Assembly (NCBI GenBank): GCA_037379345.1
Contig: CM074513.1
Location: 26,040,001 to 26,104,000, forward strand
Direction of reading: 5' to 3'
From: Perna viridis
Taxonomy: Eukaryota
Length of the DNA: 64,000 nucleotides
Shown here piece after piece: positions 1 to 46,038 of this stretch (its first letter is position 1; the number at the start of each line of letters is the position of its first letter). A program made the translations under genes and the position numbers. Below the pieces are notes generated by a model. The model had not been told where the DNA came from and did not search any database. It saw nothing but the letters and a program-made list of their open reading frames with translations.

Positions 1-480
1 TAAAGATATACTGGAACAATATGTTTCTTGCCTCAAGGTATATAATACATTACATTTTTATGACCTAAAAAAAAACTATTGACTGTGTATATTGACATGA
101 TGGGGTATAAAGCTGACATCTGTATTAGAATATTAAACACATCATTAACCATGACATACTCATCAAATAGAACCAATCCCTAAATCAATGGACATTATTA
201 ACAATGATGAACTTAGTATTTGGTTGTACATCAAAACTACACTGAACATTAGCTGTGGCTTTATTCAACCATTGAAAAAAAAAACATTTGACCATATCAC
301 CAACATTGATAATGGTCCAAAATTTAGATACTGAAGATGTACCCTTGTATTAGTAATCTACCACAACAGGGTAGGTGTATGTTTGAAATGTTAATACACC
401 AGTAATTGAACAGAAAAAGAGACATTCAAACCAAACAAAAAAAAAACACATGAAAAGATCATAAAGGATGTAGGTCTCAC

Positions 481-1064
481 CTTGTCATATACATTGAGTA
501 ATAAGTGTCCAGAATAAATGTGACTTTATCCGAGACAGCACCTCGGAAGTCTTCCTGCATGGAATTCATTACATTTTCTGAGACCTCTTGTCCTTTTTGG
601 TTTTTACCACGAGCACTAACATTTTCTAGATAGTCAATTATTTTGGTTAAGTTGTCTTCAGACACTGAGAATGTATTGAAAGGGTCCTGTTCAGGATTAT
701 CTTTCCACAGAGTTGTGCTTACTCGGATAGGAAACATTGCCAGGGCATCAGTATCACTGACATAGGATGCTAGACTAGCAGATGTACTCGTTGATGCTAC
801 AGAAGGTGTGTCAGAGTTTCTTCTAGCATTAGAGATGTCAATTTCATAGTACAAGTAATTCAAATTTTCCAAGTTATCAGATCCAATTAAAAATTGTGCA
901 GTTGAATCACACAATTCCTGGTCGGCCATTTCTGATTTGTTTTCTATGTCTGCAGCAGCTTCTGTCAAGTCAAGGCTGTCATCCCCAACAGAGTTATCTA
1001 ATACTGTATCTAACAAATCTAAAGCCGTCAAGTTCCAAGACTGATCTGATATTGCTTCAGCCAT
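481..1064 (-). CDS. Putative alternative first coding exon of the SLK gene (kinase-less short isoform)
   Basis: Acidic 195-codon ORF. ATG is in good context (acaATGG) with an in-frame TAA 8 codons upstream. It ends ACA AG|gtgag, a phase-2 donor with the same phase and split Arg codon as SLK exon 5701-5834. It lies in the SLK intron, on the same strand. Confidence 0.6.
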
Positions 1065-3655
1065 TGTTTCAAATGTACCTTTCAGTTATTTTCTACATCC
1101 TTATTAGATAAAAATCTGAAATACGATGAAATTTCAAGATTGCCGGAGGACATGTAAACACTGCAATCAAGGAAAGTGCAATCCAATTGTATTTGTCAAA
1201 ATCAATCCCAGAATAATTCCGCTGGCCAGACCAATAAATGATCCAACAGAACTTTTAACTGTTCCGAATAAAAAATCAACTTTTTTCCAACTGATTATGT
1301 AATATGGAATGCTCTCTCAGAGATCTAACCTTCTCTGATCCTGTCTTTTATAGATTTTCTGGCAATTCAAGTAAAATTATATAATCAGTAATATCCATGG
1401 TAATTTTGTTTACAAAAAAGAATCACACTTCCGATCAAATGTTTATAGGACACTTCTCAGTTTCCACATTTACTATACATCAACATGAATAAATGAATAA
1501 CCAATCTTCTATCTATCATCAAAGCTCCAACGACACAAGACAATAGTTACGACATATCCAACCACAGTTTGACTATGAATACTCACAAGAAGAAATAAGA
1601 TAATTTACATAAAAGCCATCTAATATATTCCAATTATGAGAATATTCTAGGAGAACTATATTGGTGTAATACTTCTCTGTCCAATTTCGTCAAAAGCTAA
1701 TAAGTATTTCCTTGATATCATCATATAAAACTTCCTAAAATCAATATGTTCCAATTTATTAAAATCAACAACTACTTTATGTGATATCTCTGTCAATCAG
1801 AAAGACAAGTTTGGAGGCAAAATGCACGTGTATAAACTGCCATCTCTAATTCTTTTTAAAGCACACTATATTTCATGCTATGTCTGAATTCTATAATTAA
1901 ACTGGCATTGTCATATAACATCTAATTTTCACATGTATGTCAGTTTTATGAACAGTTCTATATAAGTACGGGAAATGACGAAGGTCAACTAGGTAAAGCC
2001 TAAGTCCAGATTAAACTTCAACAAGCTGAAGCTACATCTGTAAGAAGAATTCAGTGTAAGTCTACCTGCAGACTGAGCCAACAAATGCAGTGTATTATCC
2101 AAATGTCATTAACAAATGCAGACAATTACCAGTAATCCCTTTGAGAACCTATGCTAATCTATTACATGTACATATTGTCCCTCATCATCAATTATATCTA
2201 TATTACAAGAGAAATGTCAAAATACTCCCCTGCCAGCCAGATGTGAATTCGTTATCATTGTTGGTTCACAGAAGTACCATTAGAAATATGTACAGAAGCA
2301 AATCTACGTGATAATTTATTCGTTTTCGTCCTTCTCTTTGAAATTGGTCACCAATATGCATGCAATAAAACACGATTTGTTAGGAATGGGAAATATTCAA
2401 TTTCACTTGTTATCTATTTAACAAATTACTACCGGGTCTCATAAGCATTATTTTCTCCTTCTTTTACAATTAGTTTAAAAAAAAAAAAAAATTATTCCCA
2501 GTGGAAATCTTGAACACATACTTTTAAAACACTGTTTATCTGAGTAACTTAACGCATGGGAGACAGTCACAGCTGATTGTTTTTTAACAGTATCTAGACA
2601 TCTACAGAACACAGTAGACAAAAACATGATATGACCTGTCTATAGCTATCAGTCACAACCTAGATATCATTCCATAAAATGCCAAAATGCCAATGTTAAC
2701 ATCATAAGTCAGCTGCTTTCTTCCACCACAGGTATTGATTCTAACAAAACAAAACAATATATCCTGGCTTTACATCAGGAGTGGCATGGTACAACTAGAT
2801 ATCTATAGTCATTAAACTGCAGATCTTTGTCTACTCCTCCAGATTATCGATTTCAATTGCATTTAAGTGTGAAGGCTTTTATCTTTAAGTTAATTTTCTA
2901 TCACTTTTGGTAAATTATTTCATTACTTCCATACAAGATCATCCTGTGTTTCAGGCTACATGTTTCACTGATTGAAGAGACAATTCAGAATCATATTACA
3001 ATATGTAACTCCAGACTATAATTTTTGACAGTCCTACTTCCGTCAGTTCAGAATAAGAATTTCTCAATTAGTTTTTTTATCCTCCATCTTGAATGTATCT
3101 TAAGTTCTTTACAAGGGTTCAATTTCAATTGTGACAGAATTTCTATCCCACTGACAACTCAGAACTTGACATATTCCTAAAAGCCAACAACAAACTCTCG
3201 AGTACTGATAATCTAAAACTAGAGTTAAGTTGTGTAACAACTCCTGTGAAACTAAACTATCCTACTTCTACTACATGTAATTCATAGAATAAGGTTAATG
3301 ATAATCACTTCTAATAGTATACATGAAAGGTCATAAGAATCCAGTACTACCAATTTAGTTAACAAAGTATGACACCTGTATTGCTATCATTACACATTAA
3401 AACAGTGATCAGCACACATCTCTGATCCATACAATAAAATTTATCACAATAAATGTCAGTATTATAACATCCTACATAACCTACAACAGTCCTTGTCATC
3501 GCCCAGGCAATAATAATTACTATAGATATCCCCATTACACAATGGTATGGTCACATGATACACCTGGTACCACGTCCACTGGTGTCAACTAACTGGTTAA
3601 ACATGTACGTAACATGTACTATTCAGTTATATAACAATATGAACTCTTCATTCTT

Positions 3656-5700: not shown

Positions 5701-5834
5701 CTGTTGTCATAGTCCACCCTAATCTTATTCTCATCTCCTGCCTGGACCACTCTCTGTGTTGTACTGGTGACCACCACACCATCTTTCATGTATCTCCTGG
5801 TCTTTGTCAGGGTTCTGTACTGGGATTTACTTTC
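5701..5834 (-). CDS. SLK: SLK exon at the start of the C-terminal coiled-coil region (ESKSQYRTLTKTRRYMKDGVVVTSTTQRVV...)
   Basis: ttaacag|GAA ... AAC AG|gtaagt. The translation resembles the conserved SLK/STK10 TLKKTRKFxVDGVEVSVTTSKI motif. The gene continues beyond the window start. Confidence 0.85.
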
Positions 5835-7894: not shown

Positions 7895-8717
7895 AACAAG
7901 AGGCTCCCAAGAGCATGAATTGCTCACCTGGTTAAATTTTGCCTTTCAAGGGCAATAATTTAAACAAGAAGTAGTCCAACAATTTTGACTCAAGAAAACT
8001 TTGATAGAACTTATCATAAGGATCATTTCAGTAAATGAAAGTCTAAATCTATCATAGTTTTCAAGACATTGGCTGAAAACTGTAAAAAAAAAAAAAAAAA
8101 ACCTGTCATTTCCCCCTGTCAAGGGCAATAACTCTTATAAGAAGGCGTCTGACAAATTTTATGCCTAAAAACTTTTGTAGTCCTAAAAATAAGGATCATT
8201 TCAGCTATTGAAAGAATTTATGCAAAATATATGCAAAAAACTATTGTCTCACCCCTATGTTCTATTTTTAGTAACGGTGGCCATGTTTTTGACGGATCAA
8301 AAATCCTCACATCAGCTCTATGCAGAACACACCAAGGAACATTCATACCAAGTTTAGTTCCAATTGGTCAAGTAGTGTCAGAGGAGAAGATTTTTGAAAG
8401 AAATAACATAAAAAATAGCAAAAAAAAACGTTGAAAAAGGGCAATAACTCCAACATGGCTTAACAGATTAAAATGAAATTTGACCACAGTGAAAAACTAC
8501 TGTCCGACCCCTATGTTCTATTTTTGATAACAGTGGCCATGTTTTTTGACGGATCAAAAACAGTTCTGTGCAGGATACCCCAAGAAACATTCATACCAAG
8601 TTTGGTTCCAATTGGTCAAGCAGTTTCTGAGGAGAAGAGTTTTGAAAAATTGTTAACGATGACGGACGCCAAGTGATGGAAATAGCTCACATGACCTTTG
8701 GCTAGGTGAGCTAAAAA
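7895..8717 (+). mobile_element. Non-autonomous Helentron/HINE-like (pearl-type) bivalve repeat with internal direct repeats
   Basis: Begins AACAAGAGG. Recurrent AAGGGCAATAA(C/T)T, and two copies of a CCCTATGTTCTATTTTT...GGCCATGTTTTT...CATACCAAGTTT...GAGGAGAAGA unit. Short GACG microsatellite, then a terminal hairpin (GCTCAC...GTGAGC) followed by an A-run. Confidence 0.65.
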
Positions 8718-10243: not shown

Positions 10244-12146
10244 ACCAGAAACCTAATATGTTACTAACAGAAGAGGGTTGTACCATTGCTTAGAAAAAGG
10301 AGTAAAAAAATCTAAATATCAATGCATATACAAGCGTTTTATAATGCCTAATGCAAAATGTACCTATTACAAATGGTAAATACAAGTAGCAACTGTCTGA
10401 ACTGGTACCTCAACATACTGAACTCAGTAAGAGTAATCTTTTAAATTCAATGGATACTTAAAAACTGTATGCTTGTATGCATATGAAATATACAAGCATT
10501 GTGATCAATAACCATGTCATTCATAATGACTACATGTACCAGTTACATGTATTTATGGTAATAAACAAATACAACTTCTTGACATTTTACTTCCTCCTTG
10601 CCTGAAGCAATACACTACAAATATTTTGATTACTACAACAAATCCTCAAATTTTATTTACTATAACAGTTGAACATCAGTTTACCAGAGTATATAATCAT
10701 AATATAATCATTTCTAGTTTAGTTCAATTTCTTGAGTACTACACATCACATGTGTTGATAACTAAAACAATCAATGATATACTCATCTAAATATTTCAAA
10801 CTAGAAGTATCAGATAGATGTTATTTTAAAAACAAATACTATCTTTAAAAAAAGATAACCAACGCAGTAAAATTTGTTCTCTTTACACATAATTTTCATC
10901 AGGAAATAACGCATGGCACGCAATTTCAATTTCCTTTTTCAAACCCCACTATGTTATCAATATTTGGCCAATCTGGAAACAGAATTTTGATCAGGTGACT
11001 TGTGTTTCCATGGGAGAGCGTCTTTAAGGTCAAAGGCTAGAAAGGGAAACTATACCGACTGCATCAGAATGAAAAGGTAATGCATGGTAAAAATTAATAC
11101 CAGCAATTTAGAAATGAACAGTATATTATTTCTGCTGACTAAGGAAAGGGAGTTAATACACATTAACATGGAGTTCATTTTCTGTCAAAATCAAAATATC
11201 TTCCTTCAATGATTTTAGCAGTCAAGGGACTCCAGACAGCTCTAAATATTACCAGTAAATCATTAATAAAACATATCTAAACAACAGTTTATCTACATAA
11301 TGCATATCACAAAAAAAAAGATTCCCTTCCATAAAAATTTAAACACTTATCATAAATACATGTATATAAGAATAGGGAAAGAGACAGGACTATACAACTA
11401 AAATCAAACAACTATAAAGATGAACTACCAAAATACACTATAAAGTAAACTTACTTTTCTTTGCAAGAATAAAGTAGAAAAATAAAAGGAACCAAAGACA
11501 ATTTACAACACAAACTTTGGAAGAGACTGCATTTAAATATGTTGCAAACATGAAAACATGACTCTGTGTCAATCAAAAATACAATCAGGAAACCCCTAAA
11601 ATAAGTTTTGGAAATGTGTACTTATCTGGTTAATAGTGGGTACATGTAAGTCTAAAGAGTTCACCATTTATGAGATTCTGATTGATTGTACATATTCACT
11701 GATAGCCATTCAAAATAGAACAGGTAAATGGCTATGAATAGCTGACAATATCTGCATGGAATGTATTATCCAAACCCCCCTTTTTTCAGTATTAATTATA
11801 ATTGGTACATGTACATGTAATAAGAGTATGAGTACAATGTAGAATGTTACAAAATAATTGTTTCAATAGACATGTCTGAAATTAACATTAATTTGTGAGG
11901 AAGTTTTAATTCTTATAGATTAATTAAAACTTTTCTCTTTATTTTGATAATAATCAATAATTCAAATAAACATTACCTGTTTAACGTATTAACAACTTCG
12001 TTCTTACCATCCTGAACATCTTAGTGAATATTTGTAATATTACCCAAGTCTTCTATTGAAACAATTATTTGTTAACTAAAGGACAAAGGGACAGTGCAAG
12101 AAGATGTTAAGAATACACAGATTAACTGAGGGACATCTATACTTAC

Positions 12147-12155: not shown

Positions 12156-13859
12156 CTGAAAAATTAGTACAATATCTATAGATTAGAAGTCACATCACAT
12201 ATATAATGACACGAGAATGGAAGGTTTATTATGATGATTGAGTACAGGCTTGTATCCTTTTTTAAATTAAATGTACATGTATGATCATTCAAATATAATC
12301 ATTGGATTCTCATCTCTACCCAGCCATTACAAATTGCTGTCCCTAATTGAAAATTTATTAAATATATCAATAAATGATTTTGGAAGCCATTAATATCCTA
12401 TCCACACGTACATGTATGTAACTTAATAAGTTTTCTACTTCAGATTTATTTTCAGTTAAAAGAGAAAGATACTTTCATAACTCAGTGACATTTTCTGTAA
12501 AAAATTAACCCAGAAAAAAAAGAAGATCAGTTCTCAAGACCAAGAGGACCTTAGCAAGTAATGATATCAAAACAAAAAATGCCATTGTGAATTTAAGTAC
12601 AGGAAACTATCATATGAAATCATCCCATCCTGCCTGATACTGTTTCAAGAGGTAGATGAGAATCTATAAGTACACCTAACTATTAAATAAAATCCAAATT
12701 TTTAAAAAATTCTGAAATGCTCGTTAAAATCTAAACTTATACTAACAATAGAAATAAATCATACATCATTTTGTTAACGATAATGATTTAGTATCATGTA
12801 TTTATCAAATAAACATATGATGCTCTTAATAAACCTTCCATATGCCATTACAGTAAAGTTTAAGTCCGTGCAAAATTACAAAACACTACATCATTGCTTT
12901 ATGAAATTAAAGAAGTTAAGAAAGTCTACTGTAAATATTTCATCAATCAAGAAATTTTAAGACCAGAAATACATGTAGGAGTGACTCTAAGTATTATCCA
13001 TAACACATCCTAAGGGTATCCCATACCAGAAGGCATTATTTCATTGTTAAAGTCTAGTTTCATAAGTAAAGCATGTAAACACAAAATGAGGTTTCCATAT
13101 TATCTTAACACTCCCCAAGAATTCAGTAATTGAACAGTGCATGTTTTTTGGAACTTAAGTAAGTGAACTTTTCATTCATTAACCTGTCACAACTCATAGA
13201 AATTATGATGATGTTTGGGAAATATAGTGGTGTTTCCTTGATTATTTTTTTCTACATACTTGTAACTAGCCATAAATCATTATAAGATTCCTGAAACACA
13301 GTGATACATTAGGCCTAATAGTTGAGTTCTAGAATTTACAAAGAAAAAGTGTTTTTACTCACTAAAAATAAGTATAGACAAAAGACCTCACGTAGAGATA
13401 TTTTATGAAACCTACCCCTTATCACAAGAACATGCATGCTATGATATGCATCTATGTAACTAGTACTAGGTGCTTTCATATTGCTATATATTCAGTTCAG
13501 ATGAAGCTGTCTTAATTGAAAGCCAATGCCACAAATCATTTAATTCAGAAAAGCAAAAACTTAATACCAAAAAGATTTTTTTAAACAAATGCTCAAGCAT
13601 ACTGAAAATGCATTATATTTGCAGGTACTTATTTTTGTGACAAAATGAGCCTGAAGGTAATTATCTTCTTCTTGTTTCGAAGTTTTGTCCTCCAACTCAT
13701 GTGGAAAGTTTATATGTGCCATAAAAAAAGAAAAAAAATTAAGTACACTGCAAAATTAGTACATATACAGTAGTTTTCAAACTCTAATTTGAAAGCATGA
13801 ATCCCAGCCAGGTAAAAGAGCATTAAAGATATCATTAGTTCACAATCTAATTTACTTAC

Positions 13860-14660
13860 ACTTCTATTTCTGATATGTCCTTGACTTTTATGCACTGGTT
13901 TCCTAGGTTCGACCTTGTCTATACTGTCCTCTGTATTTACACTCTCTGTATCAGATTTATCCTCATGGTTCTCTTCCACGTCATATGAGTCAAGGTCAGT
14001 CTGTGGTACATTAGGATCATTCTTCTGATTTGAGATAGAATTGATCATTATTTCGTTACCAGAGGTATCCTTAACACCAGTCACATGACCATTAACAAGT
14101 ACACTGTTTCCCGTGTTTGCAGGAGCTTGCCCATTAATAGTAATTACAGAAATGTTTTTACCTTTTTGCTCTTTCTGATCTTTCTTATCAGACTTTTCAT
14201 CATCACTATCAACCCTTACTTTTATTTCCTGTTCCTCTAATTTGGAATCCATTTCAGTTTTCTGAACAATAGCAGTTTTTGGTTTATCACCAGGCTGTCC
14301 AATTTCAATTCTAGTAACACTAGATCCACTATTTTTGTCATTTGATACACTTTCCATATCTTTCTCTTCAGATTTAGGCACATCTTCTGCTTTTACATTT
14401 TTGTCATTTTCAGTTTTTTCATCAACTTTATCAACAAGATCATCAAGTTCATTTTCAATATCAGCAACATCATAGGTAGATGTTTCATTTTCCTCATCAT
14501 CTTCCTGATTGACAACATCATTAATAGTATCAAATACAACCTCCGCCACAGAAGGCTCGGTTTCTGTAGATTTTAACACTTCATCAATAAGATCTTCAAC
14601 AAAACCTTCCATGTCAGCAACAACATCCTTATTATCTGCAGGCTTGGCAGGACTTTCATT
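13860..14660 (-). CDS. SLK: SLK exon 11, acidic disordered linker (NESPAKPADNKDVVADMEGFVEDL...HIRNRS)
   Basis: ttttcag|AAT ... AGT|gtaagt; 801 nt, open, phase 0-0; overlaps ORF 13710..14612. Confidence 0.85.
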
Positions 14661-14977
14661 CTGAAAAAAAAATTATAAAATGTTTTGAAATGATAAAAAC
14701 TTAATTGTAGATTACCAACTTTGGGAGTCTTTATCACCTAGATTTTACAAGACTTAATAAAGTCCATGGTTGTAACTTTTGTTATGACCATACACTTTTC
14801 GTAGTAAATCTGTGTGGTAAAGGTAGTCAAATTATTATTTTTATTTACTGGTATTAAAAAGCATTACTGTGACCACTGAAAGCAGCTTAACAAATTTTAT
14901 TCAACCATTTTGTGTTTCCAGTGAAAATTTGACCCACATAATTTCCTTCGCAGTAATTCCAGTTTGGAAATATTAAC

Positions 14978-15146
14978 AGGATAACTTATTGGAAAGAGTG
15001 AATAACCAAATTATGATCATGAGTGCTGGAGAAAGCCTAGATTTAACGAGTGTGTGGAACTCGTTCTGCGCACGAGTTAAATCTTAATGCATTCTTGGCA
15101 CAAGTGATCATATTTTGGTTATTCACAATAACCAATTGATTATCCT
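14978..15146. mobile_element. Palindromic MITE-like element (copy 1)
   Basis: Arms GTGAATAACCAAATTATGATCA / TGATCATATTTTGGTTATTCAC; its reverse complement aligns with 61103-61259. Confidence 0.75.
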
Positions 15147-15579
15147 ATTTATTATATAATAATTCTTCCATAATATGTTGCAATTTTCAATATAAATTTT
15201 AAATTTTGTGAACGGCAGATTGATATTCCTGTTATGACATTTTGGCAAGAGAAAGTCTGTGGCTGAAATTAGAGAATTTATTTAACAGTGTGAAATACCA
15301 ATTTTTTTTTTTCTGTTACGCAGAGAATTTTCTGTAAATCACTGCTATCTACATAATAACAGGAGGTATCTGTCCAAGTACAAAAAAGCTCAAGAGAAAC
15401 TTATTTGCAATCACAGAACATCTAAATTTACAATATAGAAAAGAAAACGAAGAAGTTAATGCAAACTCTTCACTGAATACCAATCATATTCAGAATATAC
15501 TATGTTAAAGTTATCTCCCAATTCAAAAGTGGTATTGGTAATGTCATCACCTACGTATGACGATTGAGTTTTGTTTTAC

Positions 15580-15981
15580 CTGACTTGTGTCAGATTTCTC
15601 ATCACTACTCGGTCCAAGACCTTCATCAGATGACTTATCCTGCTCCTCCTTCTGAACTTTCTGTGGACTTGATTCAGGAGATTGTTTTGGAGTAACTTGA
15701 GGAGAAGCCATTGGAGAAGATTTAGGTGATGGAGCTGGAGACTTTTTAGGAGACTCTGCCTTAGATTCAGGTGTAGTAATTTTTTGAGGTTCAGGACTTG
15801 AAGCCTTCTCTGGTTCTGGTGTAGGAGCTTTCTGTGGCTCAGGAGTGGGAGCTTTTATTGGCTCGGGAGTAGGAGCTTTTGTTGGCTCAGGAGTAGGAGC
15901 TTTTGTTGGCTCGGGTGTTGGGGCTTTCGGTGGCTCAGGTGTGGAAGTTTTCTCAGGTTGAGGTTCTGGTTTTTTATCCTC
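15580..15981 (-). CDS. SLK: SLK exon 10, Pro/Thr/Ser-rich linker with KAPTPEP repeats
   Basis: aatcag|GAG ... CAG|gtaaaa; 402 nt, phase 0-0. Confidence 0.85.
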
Positions 15982-16360
15982 CTGATTAAAAAACAACTTG
16001 TTAACAGTAATAATTCATTTCTAAATTTGCATGTAAAATTGTATCAAGTAACGACACTAGTGGGCATCACTGACAGTTCCTTGCACTCAATTTATTATAC
16101 TCTTCTAAAACTGACTAACTGAACATAACCTGCATGATAGTTTGAAAAATGTTCCATCACTCATGCACTTGTTACTTGCCCTTTCAATCAATCTCTGAAC
16201 AATGTTTCAAAAAAAGAAATTGCAGTAGTATCTTTTTTTAGTATTTTATTTTTAACCATTGCTTTATAAAACATATTATTTAAGATGTTTATAGGAGTCT
16301 GCAAACGCTTTTTCACACCTTTTGTCATAAACAAAAACAATTTTTAACATTTCACCATAC

Positions 16361-16510
16361 CTGAACAGGCTCTACTTCCTTGGCTGGTGAAGGCCTCCTT
16401 TCTTTTACTACCTCTTTGTCTGGTGATGGTGCCTTCTCTTGATCTGTTTCTCCTCCTGATGTAGATATGTCATCTAAATCTATACTTCCTGACATATCAC
16501 TCATGTGACG
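16361..16510 (-). CDS. SLK: SLK exon 9 (RHMSDMSGSIDLDD...EPVQ)
   Basis: ttttgtag|CGT ... CAG|gtatgg; 150 nt, open. Confidence 0.8.
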
Positions 16511-17076
16511 CTACAAAAAAACACTTTTAGTCAGCTGGGGAAGTCATTTTTTACTTGACAACTACGCTTCTATTGTTCATGTTTGACTTAATACAGAAAT
16601 TCACTATAAACTTTTGTTTGTTCAGTTTTGAAGCCATACAAAGATCAACAAAATGTTATCTAGAGTATTTCATGTAATCCAGACATGATAGAATAACTCT
16701 ATAAGCCTTTAAAAAGGTTTGTACAATTTGTAATTATCTGATACTGAATTTGATCAGTAAAAATAATGGTCATACAAGTCAGACTGCAAAAACCAGTACA
16801 TTAACATCAACTCCAATGGTCTCTTTAGTTTACTTATGACTAGTGTACTGAAATATAGCCCTTCAAAGTTAATATCTTGGTTCTCAGAAAGTGACGGAGG
16901 CATTTCTTTTTACCAGTTAACTGTCCAAAGAGCTTTTTACATTGTTCATGGATAGAAAAAAATGATGAGGGGGGTTCTTTTTAATTTTGATTTTATTGAT
17001 ATGGATAATAAAGCACCTTTAGAAAAGACAAGAGAGGGTCTAAGAACCAAGTAATGTGAGAAATAATGTGTTATAC

Positions 17077-17199
17077 CTTCATTTCCTGAATGTCTTCTTC
17101 CTCTGTAAGATCTTCAATAACTTCAACTACTTCCGCTTTAGATTCTAACACCAAGTTCAGTATATCTTTCTTATCTGTGTAATCCTTAATAAACTTGTG
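17077..17199 (-). CDS. SLK: SLK exon 8 (HKFIKDY...LESKAEVVEVIE...)
   Basis: ttacag|CAC ... AAG|gtataa; contains the post-kinase KAEVxE motif of SLK/STK10. Confidence 0.9.
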
Positions 17200-17516
17200 C
17201 TGTAAAGTAATTAATTTGTCTATTAATCTCCACCATAAGTAGAGTAAAATATCTTATTTCAACTTTCTTGTATCTTATAACCAACTGCACAAACTTCAAA
17301 CAGGTACATATGTTAATGAGTCATCAAATCTGGTATGGTCAAAGAAAAATAATATGCAGCCAAAAATTTTATGCCTCCCCCCTAAAAAAACAAAAACTTG
17401 TGTGACATGTAACTTTTTTCAACAGTCAAATGGTTTTGGTACAAAGAAAATTCAGATAATTTTAACTTGCAACATAAAAGACTCATCTTAACAAATTAAA
17501 TTTAATCATATTTTAC

Positions 17517-17598
17517 CTGTAATAACTCTCCAGCAGTTGGTCTTGAATCAGGGTCTTTATTTAGGCACAATTTAATGAATTCATTAAAAGCTTTTGAC
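17517..17598 (-). CDS. SLK: SLK exon 7, kinase subdomain XI (SKAFNEFIKLCLNKDPDSRPTAGELLQ)
   Basis: Canonical splice sites, phases consistent with neighbouring exons. Confidence 0.92.
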
Positions 17599-17960
17599 CT
17601 GTAAAAAATATGATAGAAATTAGAGGGGAGATAATCCTGTCTGTGATTATTAAAATCTTCTAGATTTTTTGTATCTCTCCTTTTTTAACATATCAGCATA
17701 AAAGAATAGAAATATATGATGTCTGCAGAAGCAAACAGCACATTTCAATTTTAAAAATATCTGCCACTTTACCTTCACGCAGCAAAATAATACAAAATCC
17801 TATTATGTCATCAAACTTTGTGGAATCAAATTGTTTACATGAATAAATATGACAAACCTCAAGTGACAAGTTAAAGCATCTATGATTAAAAAATTATATA
17901 CGGAACAACAAAAGATTCACATGTTAATGAAAAGTTTTACTTATTTTGTCACTTAACCTA

Positions 17961-18110
<150 letters not shown>

Positions 18111-18626
18111 TTATTCAAGCAATAAATAAAATAAAAAAATACAGGACAATTCAACTTACCAGTACCCAAATTTAACCTGAAAACATCAGTAACAGTCCTT
18201 TTATAAAAATAAAAACACTTTCACATCATTAAGCAAAAATGTTTCATTCATAAATATAATTAAGTATGTAGTAGATACATTGTGTACTTAAAATAATGGC
18301 TTACTACTACAGAATATACACAGTGCTTGCCTTTATCCACTAGCCAAAAGCCTGGGGCTAGTAAAAATTGATTCAGGCTAGTGAAATGATGTGTACTTTT
18401 CTCGTTTCCAGCTAGTTGACTCCTATAAAGTCCTCTTATTCGGACTAGTTGTTGAGAATTTTGATGGAAAGGACTGTAAATGTAAGTTCTTATCACAGAT
18501 GTCTAACAAATGAATGTAAAAAGTTCCCTTTAAATGTCAATAGACAAAATGTTCTTTCTTTTCTGTTTTTACCCTCATACCATAGATATTAAAGGGATCA
18601 GAATGACTACCTCCAGTCAATTACTA

Positions 18627-18731
<105 letters not shown>

Positions 18732-18969
18732 TCAGTAAAAGTTATGTTGGATAATGTATAACATTCTTCTTTAAATGGTAAATACCAGTAGATGACCTAT
18801 GGCTGGTACAAATGTCAATACACAGATTCTTATTATGGTACACATAACTCAAAGATGTCATAGTTGTAATTGATAAAAATAATGTTTACAAAATTATTGA
18901 CATTCAAATTTTAATGCTACATTGTAACAAAATCATTATCATGTATGTTGAAGTTGTTACATGTAACTA

Positions 18970-19128
<159 letters not shown>

Positions 19129-20040
19129 TCAGTGTAAGACACACGTGTGTTTATCTTAAGATATTAAATGACCAAGGAAATGGTCATCATGAACATTAGG
19201 TATTATTGCTTGGACTATAATATTATTTTTTTACCATGCAAGATATTGTATGCTTTGAGTAAAAATGTGTACTGAATGCATATTAGTAGGTGTGTTTTCT
19301 TGATGTGTATGACAATGGACAATTATACTAATTTCAAATGATAACTAATAGTGTTAATATTACTGCATGTTTTTTGTACATGCAAATCAAAGAGTTAGGA
19401 AAAACCACCCATAAGTGAACCATGACCCTTTTTCAAATATTTTGAAAATCATCTTATATCAATAAATATATGTTCTATGTAAGACAGTACCTTGCCTCAG
19501 GAAATATGTTATGTACTATTTTAAATACATGATTTTCTGTTATTATAATCCTAAAATTTTTTCTTCCTGACAAAAATATTAACAAAATAAAAACTGCACT
19601 TGGCTAGTGCAAATTACTGAACCAAGATGGCAAGTGATACTTCACTGATTAAATCTTAATTACCATGGGCAATACAATTCTAATTATCTCAAATATTCCA
19701 AACATTTCTGCCAACCTAACACGATGTTTAGAGTGTCAAGGATCATACATAAATCAAGATGGCTAGTGAAATTTTATTTTTGGGGTTTGATATGAATGTT
19801 ATGAACCACTTGAATAAGAGAATAATTAAAATTCAAAAAAAAGCTTCACACACCTGAATCAAATACAATAAATATTTTTCCAAGCCTTTACAAAGTTGGG
19901 GTATCAGTGTTTTGATTTTCAATTTGCAATACATTATTCCCTGGGTAAAAATATTGTACACTACTATGCTGTGTCGTATTTTCTAATTATTATAAAAAGT
20001 ATGGTGAACTAAGAGAAGATGTCAGATTAGATCTATTTTA

Positions 20041-20268
<228 letters not shown>

Positions 20269-21037
20269 CTACAAAAGAAGGAAAAATAAAATTAGTTACA
20301 GCTACATACTCATACTTTAGTACATGGTAAAAAACCAAGTAGTCAAACAGTAGGGTTATATTGTCACCCAGGCCTGAAATATACCGCATCAATTCAGAAA
20401 CTGTATGGCATTCTGGGATTACTATCATTTATGATGCTCCTGATTGGTCAAGACATATTTTATGAATACACTGCAATAGGTCAAAGATGAGGATAGAAGT
20501 TCGATTTCTGTATTTGTTCATGATAAGGTACACTGAAGACAAGAGTCAAACATTGTGAGCCTGTGTCTGTCCCCTCTTACGGAGCAGGGGTATAAAATAC
20601 ATTTCAAGACATACAACTAGAAGTTGAATAGATTTTTTTTTCTTAGACTATTGCTTCAGTACTATATGTACATGTTTCTGAAACAATTAACAAATCAAAA
20701 AAAGGAAATACATACATAAGGTATCAAATACTGTAATGCATTATTGCAGTGGCTTTTAGCTTAATAAACAACTGAACTTGGCAAGTGGAATCTCAGCCCA
20801 AGGAAAGTAATATTTGTAAGGAAGTCAGTGAAATTTTTGTAGAAAAGTTATCTGAAAATGCCAATCTTTCATAAGGAAAGTAGAAAAATTCAGAATAGTT
20901 TGTAGCTTCCCATCTTTTCCAAGTCTATTTCACATTTAAGTACAATCAAAGAAAGCACCATTCCTATATCTTTTACAATTCTGACATATAAGACAAAATA
21001 TAAACACAAATCACTAACAATGACAATTTCTACGTAC

Positions 21038-21202
21038 CCACAGCTTACTGTCAAAATAAAATGCTTCATGTAAGGCCACAACATTTTTATGTTGACATTC
21101 AGTTAAAATGTTAATTTCTACAGAAAAGTCTTCTATATCTTCTTCACACTTGATTTCCACATGTTTTAAGGCAGCACATGTACTGTTTTCTTTGTGTTCA
21201 GC
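21038..21202 (-). CDS. SLK: SLK exon 2 (AALK lysine, alphaC helix)
   Basis: ttttcag|GCT ... TGG|gtacgt; 165 nt. Confidence 0.93.
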
Positions 21203-24200
21203 CTGAAAAAAAGGAGCACAGCTGAGTAACAAGAGTAATTATAACACCCATCTTAACAAACGTAAAAAAGAAACTGACAGATATCAATATAAACAGCAGG
21301 AAATACAAAGTACACTCATACATGTACATGATATCTTTATGCATAACCTTCAATTTCAAACAATATATGAGAAGTATTAGATTATTCAACTACATGTATT
21401 TTTCTTGTGAAGCAGTAAATTACTTTAATAGGAATAATGAATTTGTGAACAATAACCATGTTTAAAAAGGTAAAAAAGGAACTTAATACAAATAAAATAT
21501 GAATAAAACATAAAAACAAATAGATAAATGTGAGCCAAAATATTCAGCCTTACAGCCTTCGTCAGGGACAAACAAGTACTCAAAATAAAACTCAAAATTA
21601 CTCAAAAAGTGACAGACAGACAGGGTGAAACATATATACCCCCAAACTTCGTTTGAAAGGGGGTTAATAAAAAATTTTCATTGACATGGTTTACATTTAC
21701 ATCAAATGTTATGATGATCAATATAATTGGACTCCTGCACTTTCAACCACAGCATTCTGCTACTGACTTACAAAATAAAGATATACACATACTACAACTT
21801 TGCACCATAAGACATGACCTAAATCTACAAACTGTCTATCAAATTTTGACATGACATGCATCAAATGCATTACACTTACAACTATACATATTTCGGGTAC
21901 AAGTTAATGCATGTAACTGAAACCTACATAGTAAATAAAAACACCATATTGGCCAAACAATGGCTGAAACTTCTATCATAAATTTGTTGTTTAAATGCAA
22001 GGTCACAAACTGAACTTGGTTTATAATTATATTTGCACCCAGATCACATTTCTTCCAATGGACCACACATTTTAATCTCATCTATATATATCCTTATAGC
22101 ATACCTGTACATGTATGATACATTTGTTAAAACCTATTTACGTTTTATAACTAAAACTGAAGTCAAGATATGATAAAATATAACACTTAGTAACCTGACC
22201 CGCCCCTAAGTATCAATTTAATGTGTAATTTCAATGACCCACCCAATAGAATAGGGAAGTTTATAAAGTTAATAGGATATAGAATTAGGTACAAAGTTAC
22301 TAATAATAAACGAAAGTATCGTTTATAGAATATTCACTTCACTGACTATCAACATTGTGACAAAGTGACTCAGGAATTAAACTACTCAAAATATTACATC
22401 ATATGTTTATATACACCCAAATATATACATGTTAAGGAAAAATCTTCCTTAACTGACTCTGAATGGCCTTGTTTATATTCAGACTTGTATATAGGTAACC
22501 AAATACCAATACTTGTATCAAAATGTCAGGCCAAAAATGTTTGAAGTACACTTTCTTTATCCTCAAACACTGCACTGTCTGCAAAAACCATATATAATCC
22601 ATAAAGGATTAAGCAATTTTCTTGCATTTGAAAGTAATTGTGAGTCATTTACCTACTATATACATTGTATTGTATTGTATTATTAGAATTAATCATGTAA
22701 TATTTCTACTTGCATTAACAAATTGGTTGCCAAGGCAATCTTGCCTTATGCAAAAAGAATTCAAATTTATCTAGGACCATGAATAATATTTTAAAAGGTA
22801 AAATGTTTGTTCAAGTGCATGTCATATATTAGATTCGTCATAGACTGCATGATAGGGCACTGGTTGGGGAAAAGTGAACCTGTAAATTATACAATTTATA
22901 TAAACATGACACATTAAACTTACATTAGACTTTCACATTTAGTTATACTCCAATATTGGGTAGAATCCATTCACATTTTAATAACATATGAAAGAATACA
23001 GATCCAGATTTTCTGGGTTCGTGGCCTTTATTTGTAAATTTTATTCCCTAAAAAATTCATGAAATTAACCAAATTTTCAAAAAAGGTTTTTTTTAAATGC
23101 TCGAACACCCCTAAATCTGCCAATGACTTGTATTTCCCTCTCCATTTAATTAGAAGACAATAATTTACAAATACAAGACATATTGTACAACTACATACAT
23201 GTACATGTATGCATAGACATCTTTCAAGTACTTTACAATTTGATAATCTTGATTTAACTTCCTACTAGTATATATTTTCTTATTTTTTATACCTGCACTT
23301 TAGGTCAAAACAAACAACATGATTTGACAATCTACTTCACTAGTGCAAGTTCAAGCAATAAATAATCGCTTGTACATATGTGAACATTATAAACAATTAA
23401 TTATCATAATTAGATATCTGTAGGGGGTAATGTCATATACACAGAAACCTTTTCTTTTCTTAGCTTGACCTAAACTTGTTTTCATTTTTAATATTTACAC
23501 TTCGAAGGTATTTACCTTTAAAAAATGTTTAAGTTGTCTCACTTTCATGCTTATACCAGATGCTGAATGTGGGTAAACCTTAGGTGATCAGATTAAATTA
23601 CACGTTTTTCAACAAAGGATGAATGAAAACAATGAAGTGTTAATCCTTATACACAGAAACTGGATTAAATCTGTAGTATTTACATGAACATAACATTTAC
23701 AACAACAGGTTGGAATTAAGATGAATTAGTTGTAATAATATATCCTGTAAAATTCGTAACCTACATGTACATGAAGTTATTGTACATGTGTAACAAAATT
23801 ACAGCATTTAAAGTTTAAACTCTTCTCATGATAAAATACATGTTATGTAAAGGATTTACAATATTGAAATGAATTCTTGGAACTGTTCTGAGACAAAACT
23901 ACAACATAGATACATTGTTTTTTTAAATTTATAGTAATAAACTATCGCTAATCATATCCATTGAATAGTAATTGAGTTAACCTTTAAAAGAAAAATACAT
24001 GTATGTATTGAACCCAACATGTATGTGGTAGCACAAAGTAACAAAATGGCATCAAAGACACTACAAACATGAGAGACTTGGAAGAGGGGTGCACAATGCA
24101 GTGTTCTAGCTAGGATCTGAAAACAGAGAGGCACAATAGGAGGGTACTTAAGAACATTATTTCATAAACATATTGCAGTCCCTAATGGACACAGGGTCAC

Positions 24201-26342
24201 TCATAGGTAGCAGAGTGGCAGGAGTCTTTGAGGCCTGACCAAGGCACTTCTTTATTTCTCTCTAGTGAGGACATTGATAGATGATCTTGACTATTTTTAA
24301 ACATATGATATCCAAAGGGTTTGACACCAACACTTCCCTTCTAACCCAAATCTAGCAAGCTTCAGGAACAGCTAGTAACAGCTTTATAGATGTTTTCCAT
24401 TATCAATTACTCAAACCACAAATATCCTAATACATATTTCATGTATTATACCAGTACATACAATATTACATTTACATGTACATGTAATGATGTTGTAAAA
24501 ATAGGTCAATTAATTATCAACTTCCTATCAATATTTCTGTTGTGTCTATATTATAGCATTTTTTTCAACAAAATTATCTTTACCCTAGAAATGCTTTGTA
24601 CATGAGATGAAAAGCTATATACATTGGATAACCAAACAAGAACATACTCCTTTAGGTCAACCACAAACTAAAGTACAAAATACAAAAATTAGAATATTTC
24701 AGCCTACATACAACTTATTTTATCCACCAACAATACAATTTATTGTACTTGATGAAAGGAGGGTACAGGTAAAGCAATATAAAGACTGAAATCAACACCC
24801 AACACAGGAAGATATCATGAATGAAAACATTGATAGAATACACACCTAGAGATAATTAAACTTCCTTAATCTACCTGTATATTTGAACCAGTGGTAATTT
24901 CACACTTAACTGCTACAATGAACCCTAATAGAGAAAGTAGCACAGTAACCTACACTTACAATGAATTTACTCAGTCATATAAAAAATGTAGAACAATACA
25001 GACATTTCACTCATTATAAGACTTAGATCAGTGCAAAGAAAACAAAACATTCAAAAAATTGAAATGGTTGAAATTGAATATACACATGTACTGTAGTAAC
25101 TAGTTAGATCATGATGAGCTCCTTTTAAAGAGATAGAGGATGCATTATCATGTCACAAAAAGACAAAGATCTTAAGGATGAAGAGGAATAGAAATTTAAC
25201 ACTACGGCCTAGATCTTTGACCATGAAATTTCCTTATGACTTACCATATAAATGTACACAAAATCATGAACATGTACCACTTCTGATCAAAATTCATTGA
25301 AAAGATAATGACAGAGGGTTAGAGATATAGAATTAATTTTTACAACTTCCTTAGCAAAGGAATAAAAATATTAAAAGTAGCTTAATATCTTCAAAATCTA
25401 CACATGTATTTCAGATGCTGAAACTACTAACCCAAATGATAGCTGTCAGAATATGTCATGCATTTTGTGAAATCTTATTTAGAAACACATCTTGCTTTGT
25501 GTTTTTATGTTCGATTTGGTATTAAATTACCATATTGTTTCTTAAATTGCTATACATTGTACAATGTAAGTCTGAATGTACATATGTACATGTATCCTTA
25601 AAGTTTCTATGTGAGTCTCGTAATACAGTATATTGTTCCTATGTAAAATAGTATTGAAATCAAGATATGATCTTAGGAATACATATACATACATATACAC
25701 GTATATCCAGTGTTCAAGGATTTTTTTCAAAATTTCAGGTTTCACGGAAAATTTCTAAATAAAGATTAACTTTCCAATACTTGAAGTTAGCTTTCCAAAC
25801 TTAACAAACCCTTTAAAATTTCAAGCTTTCTACCTGCCAAAGGGAAAGTGGGGCATAACTATCAATTTTCCTACATCAAAATTGCACTTGCCATGAGTGA
25901 CCGGAAAGTGGAATCCATGAACACTGATATCTCAAGGTTTTTTGTATGGACATGCACCCTGCTGAATTTAAGAAGTAAAAATGCTTTATCCATGAAACAT
26001 TTTACATATTTTAACCTTTTGCCTGCCCATGTTCCATTTCTCTACCGCATGTACATGTACATAGCACATTTGTTTACTGGGCATGAATTAAAATTATTAA
26101 CTTTGAAATCAATCATTAAACTATGGCAAAAACTTTATATTCCCATTTTCGGTATGATGTCACACTTTCAATTAGATTGATTAAAGGAGTTTTAGTTGAC
26201 TGTAAGCCATACAGAGCTACCAAGTCTATCTACAAGACGGGAAATTCCTTATTTTTCAATTGTAAATAACTCTGTTTAAAGAAATTGTCTGTTCAAAAGA
26301 TCGTTTTATAGATTTTTTTTTATATAAATAACGAAAATAGCA

Positions 26343-26416
26343 GCAACAGATTTTGAATTAGCTTTTGGGGCTCTACATCTGCAACAGATTTTGAATTAGC
26401 TTATGGGGCTCTACAT
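26343..26416. repeat. 38-bp tandem duplication
   Basis: GCAACAGATTTTGAATTAGCTT(T/A)TGGGGCTCTACAT occurs twice. Confidence 0.85.
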
Positions 26417-27222
26417 AACTTAAACAAAGGCACCTGTGAAGCATCACCTCTCTGCATCTCCAAGATACTAAACTTAAAGTACATGTACCTAGATGTTTGG
26501 AAACACTAATATATACAAAGTACATGTATTGTTCAAATTTCGGGTTATACTTAAAGGTTTCCCTAGACCAATTTAGCATCACGTAGCACCATGCTGCCCT
26601 CATCATGAATTTTACAACATGCCCCCAGTTGGCCAAACCCTGCTTTCAATTTTTAGAATAATTTTATTATTTTTCACCTGATTTGTAATGCTGTGGTGTC
26701 AACACCCATTTGTGACACTTTTATAACATAACACTAGTGTGAAGGCTGTTTATTTCTGGCTTGAAATTGATTTGTCCTCATGTTTAGATGGGGTGCCCTC
26801 AAAATACATACATTATAATGCCTTCACAAATTTGTGGAGAAAAACACTACTTCTGATCAGCTTGATAAAGAAGTTAACATTTGGAATACAATTTCTAAGA
26901 TATGCTTTATTTGAAGTACATGTACATGCTATCCACTTGATTTGTTAAGGGAGTTATTTTTCTCAGGTATAATTCAGCCTTGCTAGTTGAGTATCCTGAT
27001 TGGCCTGAATAGGCTGAAATCTTAGCTATTGCTACTGGATGCTTGTTGGTTTACTCTACTTTTTATTGGTCAGATTGATCGGAGTGAACATTAATCACTG
27101 GCAGGTTCCTGGGACATGCCTATTTTCATTGCAATTAATGCAAATGCAGCATAACTGATTTCCAATGGAAAGGGCAGAACACCTGTCAATGCTTTTTCAT
27201 CATTTCACCTTCTCGTTCTTAC

Positions 27223-27390
27223 CTTATATACTTTCCCAAATGCACCATCGCCAATTTCGGATAAAATCTCCCAAAGATTCTTAGGATCAATGTCTCTTTT
27301 GATATTTTTATACAGTTCTTTTTTCTTGGATTTGAGATCATCCTCTCCGCCGAAACGGAACAACTTTCGGAAGCTGTTAAAAAATGACAT
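27223..27390 (-). CDS. SLK: SLK (STE20-like kinase, SLK/STK10 family) first coding exon
   Basis: MSFFNSFRKLFRFG...WEILSEIGDGAFGKVYK|gtaag. The MSFFNFRKIF-like N-terminus and GDGAFGKVYK P-loop are typical of SLK. Confidence 0.95.
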
Positions 27391-28042: not shown

Positions 28043-29209
28043 AAAAGAATAATCAAGGGAACCAAGGTTATAGCGGTAATCAAAAGAATGTAATCCAGGG
28101 ACAAAGACCAGACATGGAAAACAGACATACACAACAAAGAACACAAAGTAACCAAAATCATACACACAAAGTAACAAAAACAAATGAGCAACTCGGTCTC
28201 CACTAAAACTGGGAGCATGCACCAGGTGCACCGGTAGAGTAAGTGTCCTCTGCTTTTCTAGAAACACCCGCAGAGTTGCACATAAAAAGTCAAGTCCGGG
28301 GTAGAAAAACGATGAAAAGAAAAACCATGACGCGTTGAACAAACCAGCCCCCATGGTGCAGATGGATACACCACAGCGACCCACGAGCCCACGACAACGA
28401 CCACAAAACTTCTACAGTGATGACTTCAATCTTGTAGCTACGTAACCATGCTCCAGAAGCTCATCCGTTAGAGTTCTTCCGCGATACAAAAAGTCTGCGC
28501 AGTTTCGGCAAGCTCTGGCATAACGTATGAGTTATGATATGAACACTCCATACGCAGGTGCTGAAGGGATGTCGCCACAGATGAAAGGGATGTCGCCACA
28601 GATGAAAGGAATGTCGACAATTCTGAATGAAAAGTCATCACGTTATCGCAAAGTTTAGTCAACAGTTTTCCTTTACTATCGATTTCTAAGTGTAGGTCAA
28701 GATATGGGGCTGGTGGGCAGATGCAATGCACCAAATCCTCGAAATCAGGACTGTTCAAAGACAATACGTCATCTATATAGCGGAAACTGATATTAAAGGA
28801 TCCAGCCAAACGACACTCCCTCCTTCGGATCAAATCAGCTATAAAGTCAGCCTCATAAGAGTGAAGTAATAGGTCAGCAAGTAAAGGAGCACAATTTGTT
28901 CCCATTGTAATAACGACCGTTTGTTGAAAAAGCACGTCCACCACACTTGACAAACATGTTGTCGATTAAAAATTCCAGCATTCTGCAAACATCCTCTTCT
29001 GCATACCCGGAAGACGACCTGCCACAAAGCATGAGGAACCTCAACCAAGAACTACACATTTGTATCTAGGTGTACCATCCCTCCTGAAAAAAAAACAGCG
29101 ATGTATAATGCCCTCAAGTCGGGGGGATCTCATCCGAGCATGGGGAACAGAAGCATACAGCGTTGAAAAATCATAGGCTTATTATCAGAATATAATAGCA
29201 TTAGAAACA
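28043..29209 (-). mobile_element. 5'-truncated, frameshifted Penelope-like retroelement (RT + thumb + 3' end; no C-terminal GIY-YIG, so Naiad-like), A-to-G hypermutated
   Basis: Fragments translate to YDFSTLY, LEFLIDN, MGTNCAPLLADL, FRYIDDVLSLN, YLDL, PAYGV and LIRYARAC, which are Penelope-like RT motifs. Internal 21-bp duplication near 28565-28607. Confidence 0.85.
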
Positions 29210-31596: not shown

Positions 31597-33031
31597 ATAT
31601 TGATGCACAATTGAAAACACTATATGTGGGTATCACATTTTGCATAGATATGCGTGAGTTCACCGATACTTTTTGTTAGCCTAACTGCAGTATTTGGCTG
31701 AAATCAATGGTTTGATCGTTTAACTAATAACCTTCGTGCAATTTATCAACATGCTGTGTTTGAATCTTTCAGAAGTTTTCACTAGCTTATTCTGAATTTA
31801 TGAACCATGGATTGACGAGAATTTTTATTACTACAGTATACGAAATATAATGTCAGAAATTTGACAGAAATTATTAGAGAAAAATATCCCGCTCTGCGTA
31901 CAGGATGAAATCTTGATTAAAAAAAAAAACAGTCAGGAGCAGATAAAAGAGAAATAGGAAAAAGACGACATCAAGAAGACAAAATGCAACAAACTAGACC
32001 AAATCCGACTTTACTCAGACTCAGTAACCTTATTTACCGATATAAGAAGATAACTAAATTTATATAAAAAAGAGAAGTTGTTTTTTTCCCCCGTCAAAGT
32101 TCAAACGGAACGGAACTAACGAAAAATAGAACAGAGAGGACTGTAATTGACTGGTAGTTGAATTACAATACAAAACACAAGAATGGCTTCAATATTCCTG
32201 TTTGTTTGACGAACACCTTAAAATAAAAAAAAAGATGATTTTTTTTTATAATTAATAATATAAAGGAGATCAGGAAGATGTTTCCATAGTGATGCATGAT
32301 TTATTTAAAGTTTCATTTTATGCATGTTTTATCTTCTGGAGAATTTACACAATTGCTAGTAATTTATTGACATATCTACGGAACAATACCTACAATTGCT
32401 ATTATTTAATATGTGTTAATATAAGTGACAGAATATGTCCAAATTATATAACATTGGTTTACCTGTGCATAGGATTACATACAAATAAATGTCAAAAGCA
32501 TCCACTGGAAATGAAGATCAGTGTTTCATTTTTTTTAACCTATCTAGGTTAGGGAAGGACTAAAGAAAGACAGGATAAGACAATTATATGGAAAGGAATA
32601 TTTCAAGATCTTATGGTCATAAAAACAGGACGTCATTTGTATATTTATGTATAAATATATCGGCTTTTACGAGCGTGAGATGTCATAAATATTTGGCATA
32701 ATTCTAACAGAAATTTGTATCAACTAGTTAAACAATGGTATGTGCAAAGGTGACCGCTTGTTTTACAACATCCATATAACAATGTCCAATTAAATTATTA
32801 CGGTGACATTAGAACGAGAAAAGATGATAAAATTTGTGTATTCGTAGGAGAATCTCATTTTGCTATGCGTGGTCGAGGTGAGGAGTAGTTTCAGTCTTAT
32901 GACTTATCTGAATTGTTGCGGCGAAATTTGCGTTAATTGAGTGATTAACATAGCTATTAATTTTCCATCGAACACATTCAGATTTGTTATGCATAAAGAC
33001 GTGATTGGAATAAAGTGAGAATTTATAAATT

Positions 33032-40932: not shown

Positions 40933-42614
40933 ATTCAAAAGACACAAAACAGAAAACAACAAAGAAAAGAAGCCATTTCAGAAAGAAAGAGAAGCAGAAA
41001 TCTAAGTCTTCCTCCTCGTCATCGTCGTCGTCCTCATGTAGTGACACAGAAGACGAGAAGGACGCGAAAAAGGTTGACATGAAGAAAGACAAGCAAATAC
41101 AAGTCAACGTTTTCAAAATTGATTTGAAAACGAATAAGATAAAGCAGCCTGATGGAAGTCAAACTAAGCGAAAGAAACCTAAATCAGTGGCAACGCCTCC
41201 GTCCACACCAGAATCTCCTTTCGATAAATTATCACATTTGTTCCATAGAACTCATAAGGCTAAGATAACGGACCCAAAACTGGACGCAAAGAAAGTTGAA
41301 AAAGAAAAGAAGAGAGATACAAAGAAAAGTAAGCAAAAGATAACACCATCGTTGATTGGAAGTAGTACCTCACATACTCCAACAGACGAAAAGGCGTTGC
41401 AATCAACACCAACGGTAGCAACCGGGAGTGCCTCTTCTTCATCTTATGACGGTAAGCATCTACCATTGTCTTCAACAGATGAGAAAACACGGGGTAATAT
41501 CTCATCTCCCGATACACCTAGAAAAATTGATACTGATGATCAAAGTCCTTTTAAGACTCTGCAAGAATATGCTAAGTCTCTAGATCGACACATTGATAGA
41601 ACTAAAAAAGAATTTTCAAGTTCTAGGTCAGATATTGAATTGGACAAAAACTCCGATGATGATAAGATTGAACCAGTTCGAATTCCAAGTCCGCTTGAAG
41701 ACATTATTGTTGAGCATAAAATTGAAAAAGTTGAAACAGCACGAGACCCTGGTTTTAAACCGTTATTTCCCGATATCCCGTGCCTGGAAAAGAGGACTTC
41801 ATTATCGTCACTTGAGAAAGAAATTGTTGTGGAACAACCAACATCGTCGGCTGATGAACTAGATTCTTCCATCCAAAACTCCACTTTTGACATGGGAGAT
41901 ATAGGTAGAGAGCCATTAGTTGATACACCAGATGACAATAAAACATGGAAATCTTTAAGTGAGCAATCAAAACTAAGAAGATCAAAGAGTTCATCGTCAT
42001 CATCTTCATCGTCGTCATCTTCATCTGCTGACTCAGTGAAGGCAGCAAAGGATAAATCACATGGACAACCCTTCGATGCCGATGTGCAAATTGTAAAGAA
42101 AGCAGAAATCCCAAAGAAAATTGACAATCTAGATGGCACTACTAGTCAGGACAATATAGAAAAAATTGTTCAAGAATCACTGAACACAGAACCGAGTCGA
42201 GTTTCGGTCGATCTATCGACCTCTTCGCCAGATATAATTCATAGAAGAGAACTTTCCATTGACACCACAGAGGCCTTGCAGACGTTAGACAATTCCATCA
42301 TTGCAGCAGAACAACCCTCACCAAAGCATAAAGGGCATTTCGTGGTTGTCGCTATAGATTTCGGAACAGCGTATAGTGGATATGCATTCAGTTTTACCCG
42401 GGACCCAGACAGTATTCATATGATGAGGAAATGGGAAGGTGGGGATCCTGGAATTATCAACCAGAAAACACCTACAACCATGCTGTTGACTCCAGATGGG
42501 TCTTTCCATTCTTTTGGTTACAGCGCAAGGGACAACTATCATGATATGAGCAAGGAACTGGCACAAGAATGGTTGTACTTTGACAAGTTCAAGATGACTT
42601 TTCACACCGCAACA
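40933..42614 (+). CDS. HSPA12A: HSPA12A-like exon 2: end of the disordered region plus start of the Hsp70-12 nucleotide-binding domain
   Basis: ttgcag|AT ... ACA|gtgagt; encodes [18 protein letters not shown] and [20 protein letters not shown], diagnostic of HSPA12A/B. Confidence 0.92.
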
Positions 42615-45923: not shown

Positions 45924-46038
45924 TGTACAATGTAATATGAGAATCCATTGCCAACTTACATAGTTTTGGTTTTCTGTGGGTGATATGATGTAATGATGCT
46001 ATACAATAATTAAAATAAATGTAAATTTTAATCTTCAG

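Follow-up and report, generated by a model that had tools for sequence, protein, structure and literature searches.

The SLK gene of Perna viridis holds a long open reading frame within one of its introns, which raises the question of whether this gene produces a second protein and what such a protein would do beside full-length SLK. We analysed a 64,000-nucleotide stretch of a 723 Mb assembly (G000:C3:26040001-26104000, hereafter the window), in which SLK lies on the minus strand; negative positions lie to the left of the window. A sequence-only reading had proposed that the frame is the first coding exon of a kinase-less SLK, with an acidic N-terminus of its own ahead of the coiled coils. 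The gene is laid out as follows (a slash marks an exon border).

27390-17077, minus strand: SLK kinase-domain exons, located by tblastn with the full-length SLK of Mya (P0004).
16510-13859, minus strand: SLK acidic-linker exons, located by tblastn with P0004 and by spliced joints.
5701..5832, minus strand: final exon exclusive to full-length SLK (QYRTLTKTR...), located by tblastn and transcript contigs.
-4688 (G000:C3:26035312), minus strand, left of the window: common PKK acceptor, ttttacag/A.

The kinase and acidic-linker exons (13859..27390) are absent from the short isoform. The exon at 5832-5701 ends in AAC AG/gtaagt, in the same phase as the donor at 481, and the two exons are alternative partners of the acceptor at -4688, which completes AGA (Arg) for both donors; the shared phase and split Arg codon claimed earlier are thus present. 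Nine coiled-coil exons extend from -4688 to about -15640 (tblastn with Mya P0001), and the intron of the new exon sits just ahead of these PKK exons. The two PKK (PF12474) matches of the genome are both at the SLK locus and above the cut-off. The first exon is single-copy in the genome as protein and as DNA, the DNA copy search being one that skips common words. An origin from a repeat or a retrocopy was ruled out by this single genome-wide match at both levels.

High-copy repeats lie in the SLK introns at about 7900-8700, 10840-11040, and 15000-15200, with very deep and divergent contig cover. Exon 5701-5832 contains Y-R-T-L, in which the Tyr occupies -2 and which is followed by basic residues. 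It resembles the ERM site phosphorylated by LOK and is a candidate autoinhibitory or autophosphorylation site, one that the short isoform would lack.

On the minus strand, the open frame itself spans 1085 to 480. An in-frame TAA at 1088-1086 precedes it, and its ATG lies at 1064 (context ACAATGG). Its own ATG, upstream stop, and 195-codon length are as originally described. The exon is much longer than its coding part, since a transcript contig continues without interruption to 1634.

481..1064, minus strand: the alternative first exon's coding sequence, with 194 codons followed by the AG of the split Arg codon.
475..480, minus strand: phase-2 donor AG/gtgaga, joined to the PKK acceptor at -4688.
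1065..1634, minus strand: 5' untranslated part of the exon, unspliced at AG 1116, with the in-frame stop at 1088-1086.
1650..2095, minus strand: probable further 5' extension, on separate contigs unjoined to 481-1634, from two samples (X1 and X2) of one study.

When the 9,769 flanking intron bases were shuffled, none of 300 shuffles reached 195 codons; the longest frame averaged 98 codons, with a maximum of 155. A chance ORF was ruled out by this result together with the conservation described below. From ATG 1064 the frame is open to the SLK stop, and the predicted product has 608-612 residues (the six longest of 16 splice choices); a length of about 610 fits the homologues. Upstream ATGs number 10 in the leader from 1634 to 1065, and 19 when it is followed as far as 2095; each opens a frame of 23 codons or fewer, and together they could damp translation of the short isoform. 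TCAGTC at 2076, near the contig ends at 2087 and 2095, is what we take to be an Inr-like element.

Transcripts were followed in assembled contigs from 6 of 24 runs (X1-X6), a format in which rare variants drop out. The runs carry no RNA record and were treated as RNA because they contain spliced GT..AG SLK introns; the samples X1 and X2 belong to one study, and X3 comes from another. The joint from 481 to -4688 was present in X1 and X2, that is, in two of the four runs compared across it, with GT..AG ends (L007 912 to 6081, read there as CT..AC). The short side of this joint measures 28 letters, fewer than the 31 that mark a bridge. In X1 the full-length contig terminates in an identical overhang of 28 letters, as is expected in an assembly graph where two exons meet one acceptor. 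The full-length junction was also found in X1 and X2. At 5701, a loose end in X4 matches the first 30 bases of the acceptor exon, which confirms the common acceptor. The exon therefore joins the acceptor used by the 5701 donor and not a non-SLK gene.

One unbranched contig of X1 covers 481-1634 and crosses the AG at 1116 unspliced, as does a contig of X3 (925-1135), and further contigs end at 2087 (X1) and 2095 (X2). The absence of splicing up to 1634 in X1 indicates a first exon and not a cassette, in line with the original proposal. From the 5701 donor, splicing to AG 1116 meets a stop after 11 codons, as had been noted, and all nine AGs between 1300 and 1085 lead to stops. A cassette entered through AG 1116 was ruled out by that stop and by the unspliced contigs. 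In X3 and X5 the exon is represented by low-depth pieces only, and a single unbranched full-length contig spans the acceptor; this pattern fits a regulated use of the first exon. X4 and X6 have no contig cover at 668-2001 and were not counted as evidence. Among the contigs listed, the shared downstream one of X1 (L007:789-914 onward) has a depth of 65, compared with 17.3 and 14.6 for the two upstream contigs; 3' bias would explain the excess, to which a third first exon may conceivably contribute.

We then asked how far the exon is shared. Of 1,985 candidates in an initial search, one was a hit: a model from Mya arenaria that has no kinase and is 55% identical over 87 residues. A junction-centred search gave 8 of 55 candidates, three of them with the N-terminal module (Mya, Pinctada imbricata, and Biomphalaria glabrata) and five with PKK only. 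Across 1.84 billion representatives, phmmer yielded 26 hits at E<=0.001. When 25 proteins were looked up, B. pfeifferi, Octopus vulgaris (645 aa, 'isoform X2'), and O. bimaculoides joined the list, and the other clusters bore no names. Six named predicted gene models are thus kinase-less (Mya, Pinctada, two Biomphalaria, and two Octopus): no HRD motif was found in any of them, by Pfam for Mya and by motif for the other five. In 6/6, the border between the module and [RKG]K-x-DLRE[LM]K falls at one and the same point. From the junction onward, 411 residues are identical between the short and the full-length model of Mya, which lie on contigs of equal length, and in the homologous models P0016 and P0002 both PKK repeats pass the Pfam cut-off. 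The proposed splice to the SLK coiled-coil exons is supported by the joint in X1 and X2 and by the same join in six kinase-less models.

Since these six models from three classes join the boxes to PKK at one point, we read the exon as predating the bivalve/gastropod/cephalopod split. The three classes separated more than 500 million years ago. The module was not found in named non-mollusc proteins, and a kinase-less midge model (P0008) is without it; P0022 and P0025 are divergent, unplaced rows. In a motif tree of 48 columns, gastropod-like rows grouped together and most forks stayed open. A profile search for kinase and module in one protein, covering proteins of 971-2770 aa, returned nothing, which is a weak null.

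The acidic N-terminus proposed at the outset was borne out in composition (15 D/E versus 1 K/R in residues 1-60), but its conservation did not extend beyond one close relative. In the closest relative, 88/109 residues are identical before the module and 82/86 within it. What is conserved across the three classes is the C-terminal stretch of about 80 residues with two boxes, which the sequence-only reading had overlooked. Its elements are listed below; motif counts refer to 30 sequences that are not independent, and the near-duplicates P0009, P0010, and P0029 were dropped for position counts.

624..710, minus strand: box 1 (residues 119-147), [LM]W-x-[DE]NP-x-x-D-x-[FY]-x-TF-x-VSE-x-x-[LV]T-x-x-I-x-x-LE.
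481..524, minus strand: box 2 (residues 181-195), V-x-FI[LM][DE]-x-YC-x-[IM]YM-x-[RG], in 26/27 rows.
813..824, minus strand: RRNS (residues 81-84), a basophilic [RK][RK]x[ST] site.

Box 1 was present in 29/30 sequences, and its W, D, T, F, I, L, and E are invariant in the 26 rows that hold it. It ends in a predicted helix (136-153), the pattern of which occurs in 30/30. The box 2 pattern is found in 27/30, plus Pinctada, which ends in K. This box is predicted to form a hydrophobic helix that continues into the first PKK coil; it has a Cys in 24/26 rows, replaced by Tyr in the exon of the window. The linker between the boxes ranges from 25 to 80 aa, and the region ahead of box 1 from about 60 to 430 aa in the rows having one. 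Within 75 aa before box 1, [RK][RK]x[ST] occurs in 23/27 homologues, compared with 4.8 expected from shuffles; RRNS is a candidate PKA-type phosphosite. A third motif, [ST][SG]W[IV]Y, appears in 14/30 N-termini (e.g., P0011, P0015, P0016, P0018, P0019, P0023, and P0024) and is absent from the exon of the window.

In the AlphaFold model of the exon, short helices interrupt a tail that is otherwise disordered (mean pLDDT 57). For the Octopus isoform, a helix spanning 218-342 was predicted, with box 2 continuing into the first PKK helix (pLDDT 62-67). The N-terminal module had no Pfam match at E<=1, no match among PDB sequences, no Foldseek match at E<=0.001 with this low-confidence model, and no usable hit in two ESM Atlas queries. 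VIA gave a best Z of 4.8 with nothing above background. With a low-confidence model, these negative results do not demonstrate a new fold. A complex prediction for the Mya kinase domain and the Mya module, run without alignments, scored 0.02 against a mark of 0.34.

Further functional readings of box 1 were considered. LOK and SLK prefer a Thr preceded at -2 by an aromatic residue (PMC5400502 and PMC6445471, available parts), and their site motif also has basic residues downstream. Thr131 has the aromatic residue ([FY]-x-T-F in 29/30 sequences), but basic residues at +2/+3 were found in 0/26 rows, so that only half of the preference for an SLK substrate is present. The possibility that the box 1 helix is an AKAP or LD motif was dropped, as an invariant Glu and a Thr stand where such motifs need other residues.

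Relative to the GCK-V kinases SLK, STK10 (LOK), and Slik (PF12474), the short form comes from the same gene and keeps both PKK repeats, but it is without the kinase domain and the acidic linker, and has a different, conserved N-terminus. The Drosophila Slik isoforms described in the available part of PMC7594492 vary in their C-termini, none of them being smaller than 147 kD, and the human SLK-L/S pair is given, in a source likewise available in part, as an exon-13 event. FRNK and PRNK arise from an internal promoter in a kinase gene, and FRNK is a dominant negative with a 5' leader exon (PMC1570463, available part). The mollusc form is alike in having a C-terminal targeting region without a catalytic domain, with an internal promoter that is presumed. 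It belongs to a different kinase family and adds a first coding exon of 160-550 aa with boxes of its own, whereas FRNK starts at an internal Met and is not known to bring a new domain.

A second counterpart is alphaKAP, which is produced from an alternative promoter without a kinase domain, keeps the oligomerisation region, and has its own N-terminus (PMC5882894, available part). The mollusc form is likewise kinase-free, with the oligomerisation region kept and an N-terminus of its own. This N-terminus is long, mostly disordered, and without a membrane-spanning segment, in contrast to the short hydrophobic membrane anchor of alphaKAP. The engineered fragments LOK-C and SLK-C, which localise apically and block ERM phosphorylation, have nearly the same domain content; they are laboratory constructs, whereas the mollusc form is natural, conserved, transcribed, and extended by the added module. 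Caspase cleavage also frees the SLK C-terminus.

With these comparisons in hand, we suggest that the short isoform is likely a cell-type-restricted, FRNK-like brake on full-length SLK (probability about 0.5). An internal promoter near or above 1634-2095 would be active in some samples only. The product would keep the C-terminal region, which in LOK and SLK serves apical cortex targeting, RhoA-GTP and ERM binding, and kinase inhibition. Having no kinase domain, it would compete for RhoA and ERM while inhibiting full-length SLK in trans, thereby lowering ERM phosphorylation locally. The N-terminal module, with its short helices, disordered tail, and RRxS-type site, may set where and when the brake works, through a partner.

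The published fragments suit such a role. In the available text of PMC3518218, LOK's or SLK's C-terminal domain alone localises to microvilli and is dominant negative on ERM phosphorylation, a block exceeding that by kinase-dead full-length LOK. Acting in trans, LOK-C inhibits the kinase with an IC50 of 1.2-1.9 uM, and it binds ezrin domains (PMC5400502, available part), and LOK-CTD pulls down active RhoA (PMC8185690, available part). As the mollusc isoform has the domain content of LOK-C, a natural brake on the RhoA-SLK-ERM pathway is the simplest reading. On the other side, inhibition was measured with human fragments, either overexpressed or purified, and not in molluscs, and the human fragment LOK 310-968 probably includes the exon directly before PKK, a conserved exon that is absent from the short form.

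A pure competitor needs no module conserved for so long, which favours two other explanations, and the conservation of the module argues for more than passive competition. One possible, if tentative, elaboration is a mollusc SLK subunit without a kinase, kept since before the three classes separated. Its two-box module would bind a partner of its own and, switched by PKA-type phosphorylation, would link cAMP signalling to the way RhoA, SLK, and ERM control the cell cortex in certain cell types. If true, this would be the first natural non-kinase regulator from an SLK/LOK/Slik gene.

The first of the two other explanations, the main rival of the brake though one that we regard as rather doubtful, is an alphaKAP-like targeting subunit: it would pair with full-length SLK through the coiled coils, and the module would carry the active kinase to a new site or substrate, so that the kinase is redirected and not blocked. 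The strong conservation of a module that has no counterpart in full-length SLK, and a hydrophobic box 2 helix with its widely kept Cys, would suit this role. RhoA-GTP dimerises SLK, as cited in the available part of PMC8185690, and alphaKAP, from an alternative promoter of CaMKII-alpha, offers a precedent (PMC5882894, available part). However, the highest 19-residue hydropathy was 0.76 in the exon and 0.65-1.13 in three homologues, giving no membrane-spanning segment in any of the four N-termini; the box 2 Cys is replaced in the species of the window, and free LOK-C inhibits the kinase rather than helping it.

The second, an independent non-catalytic scaffold, would use the coiled coils and the new module to act as a RhoA effector or cytoskeletal adaptor where full-length SLK is scarce and leave SLK activity unaffected. 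A private module kept over a long time would fit such a protein, as would the ability of the CTD to bind RhoA and ERM domains without the kinase; Drosophila Slik has kinase-independent roles. We hold it to be unlikely, as both transcripts occur in the same two runs, although possibly from mixed tissue, and any CTD-bearing protein beside SLK is expected to inhibit it.

An internal cassette using an acceptor within the ORF, or a first-exon transcript that stays untranslated, is improbable: eight AGs within the ORF are in frame with the 5701 donor, the kinase-plus-module search was a weak null, and the many upstream ATGs could suit a non-productive transcript, but the X1 contig is unbranched from 481 to 1634, all six named models join the module to PKK without a kinase, and conservation at the amino-acid level in three classes argues for translation.

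A search of titles and abstract openings, with subscription journals mostly outside its scope, found no paper on a natural kinase-less SLK/LOK/Slik isoform. Automated gene models of the isoform do exist, most of them tagged as partial or hypothetical or named after the family, and several of these 'partial' or 'hypothetical' mollusc SLK models would be a real second isoform and not broken predictions. ERM proteins are phosphorylated mainly by SLK and LOK, and laboratories routinely use the C-terminal domain of these kinases, in isolation, as an inhibitor; its natural counterpart in three mollusc classes suggests that animals locally switch off or redirect cortical ERM activity by this design. 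The general strategy is known from FRNK and alphaKAP, so that we describe a new instance and not a new principle, together with a previously uncatalogued conserved module of two boxes and a basophilic site.

Several neighbouring features were observed. At 28468-28965 on the minus strand lies a 165-codon frame with no Pfam hit, which we take to be a decayed reverse-transcriptase fragment. The plus strand, opposite to SLK, carries a gene at 33029-49464. It has a Ser-rich exon of low complexity that is 1,747 codons long, another of 596 codons, and a later one at 48967-49464; the pieces scanned had no Pfam hit, and the 596-codon exon presumably ends in an HSPA12-like N-terminal motif. Downstream of SLK, at about -20302 to -22608 (L004:8337-9698, minus strand), a 454-codon frame encodes DUSP and ubiquitin-like domains and a coiled coil. 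The frame that follows it looks to us KCTD/BTB-like, which would be an unusual combination if the two belong to one gene.
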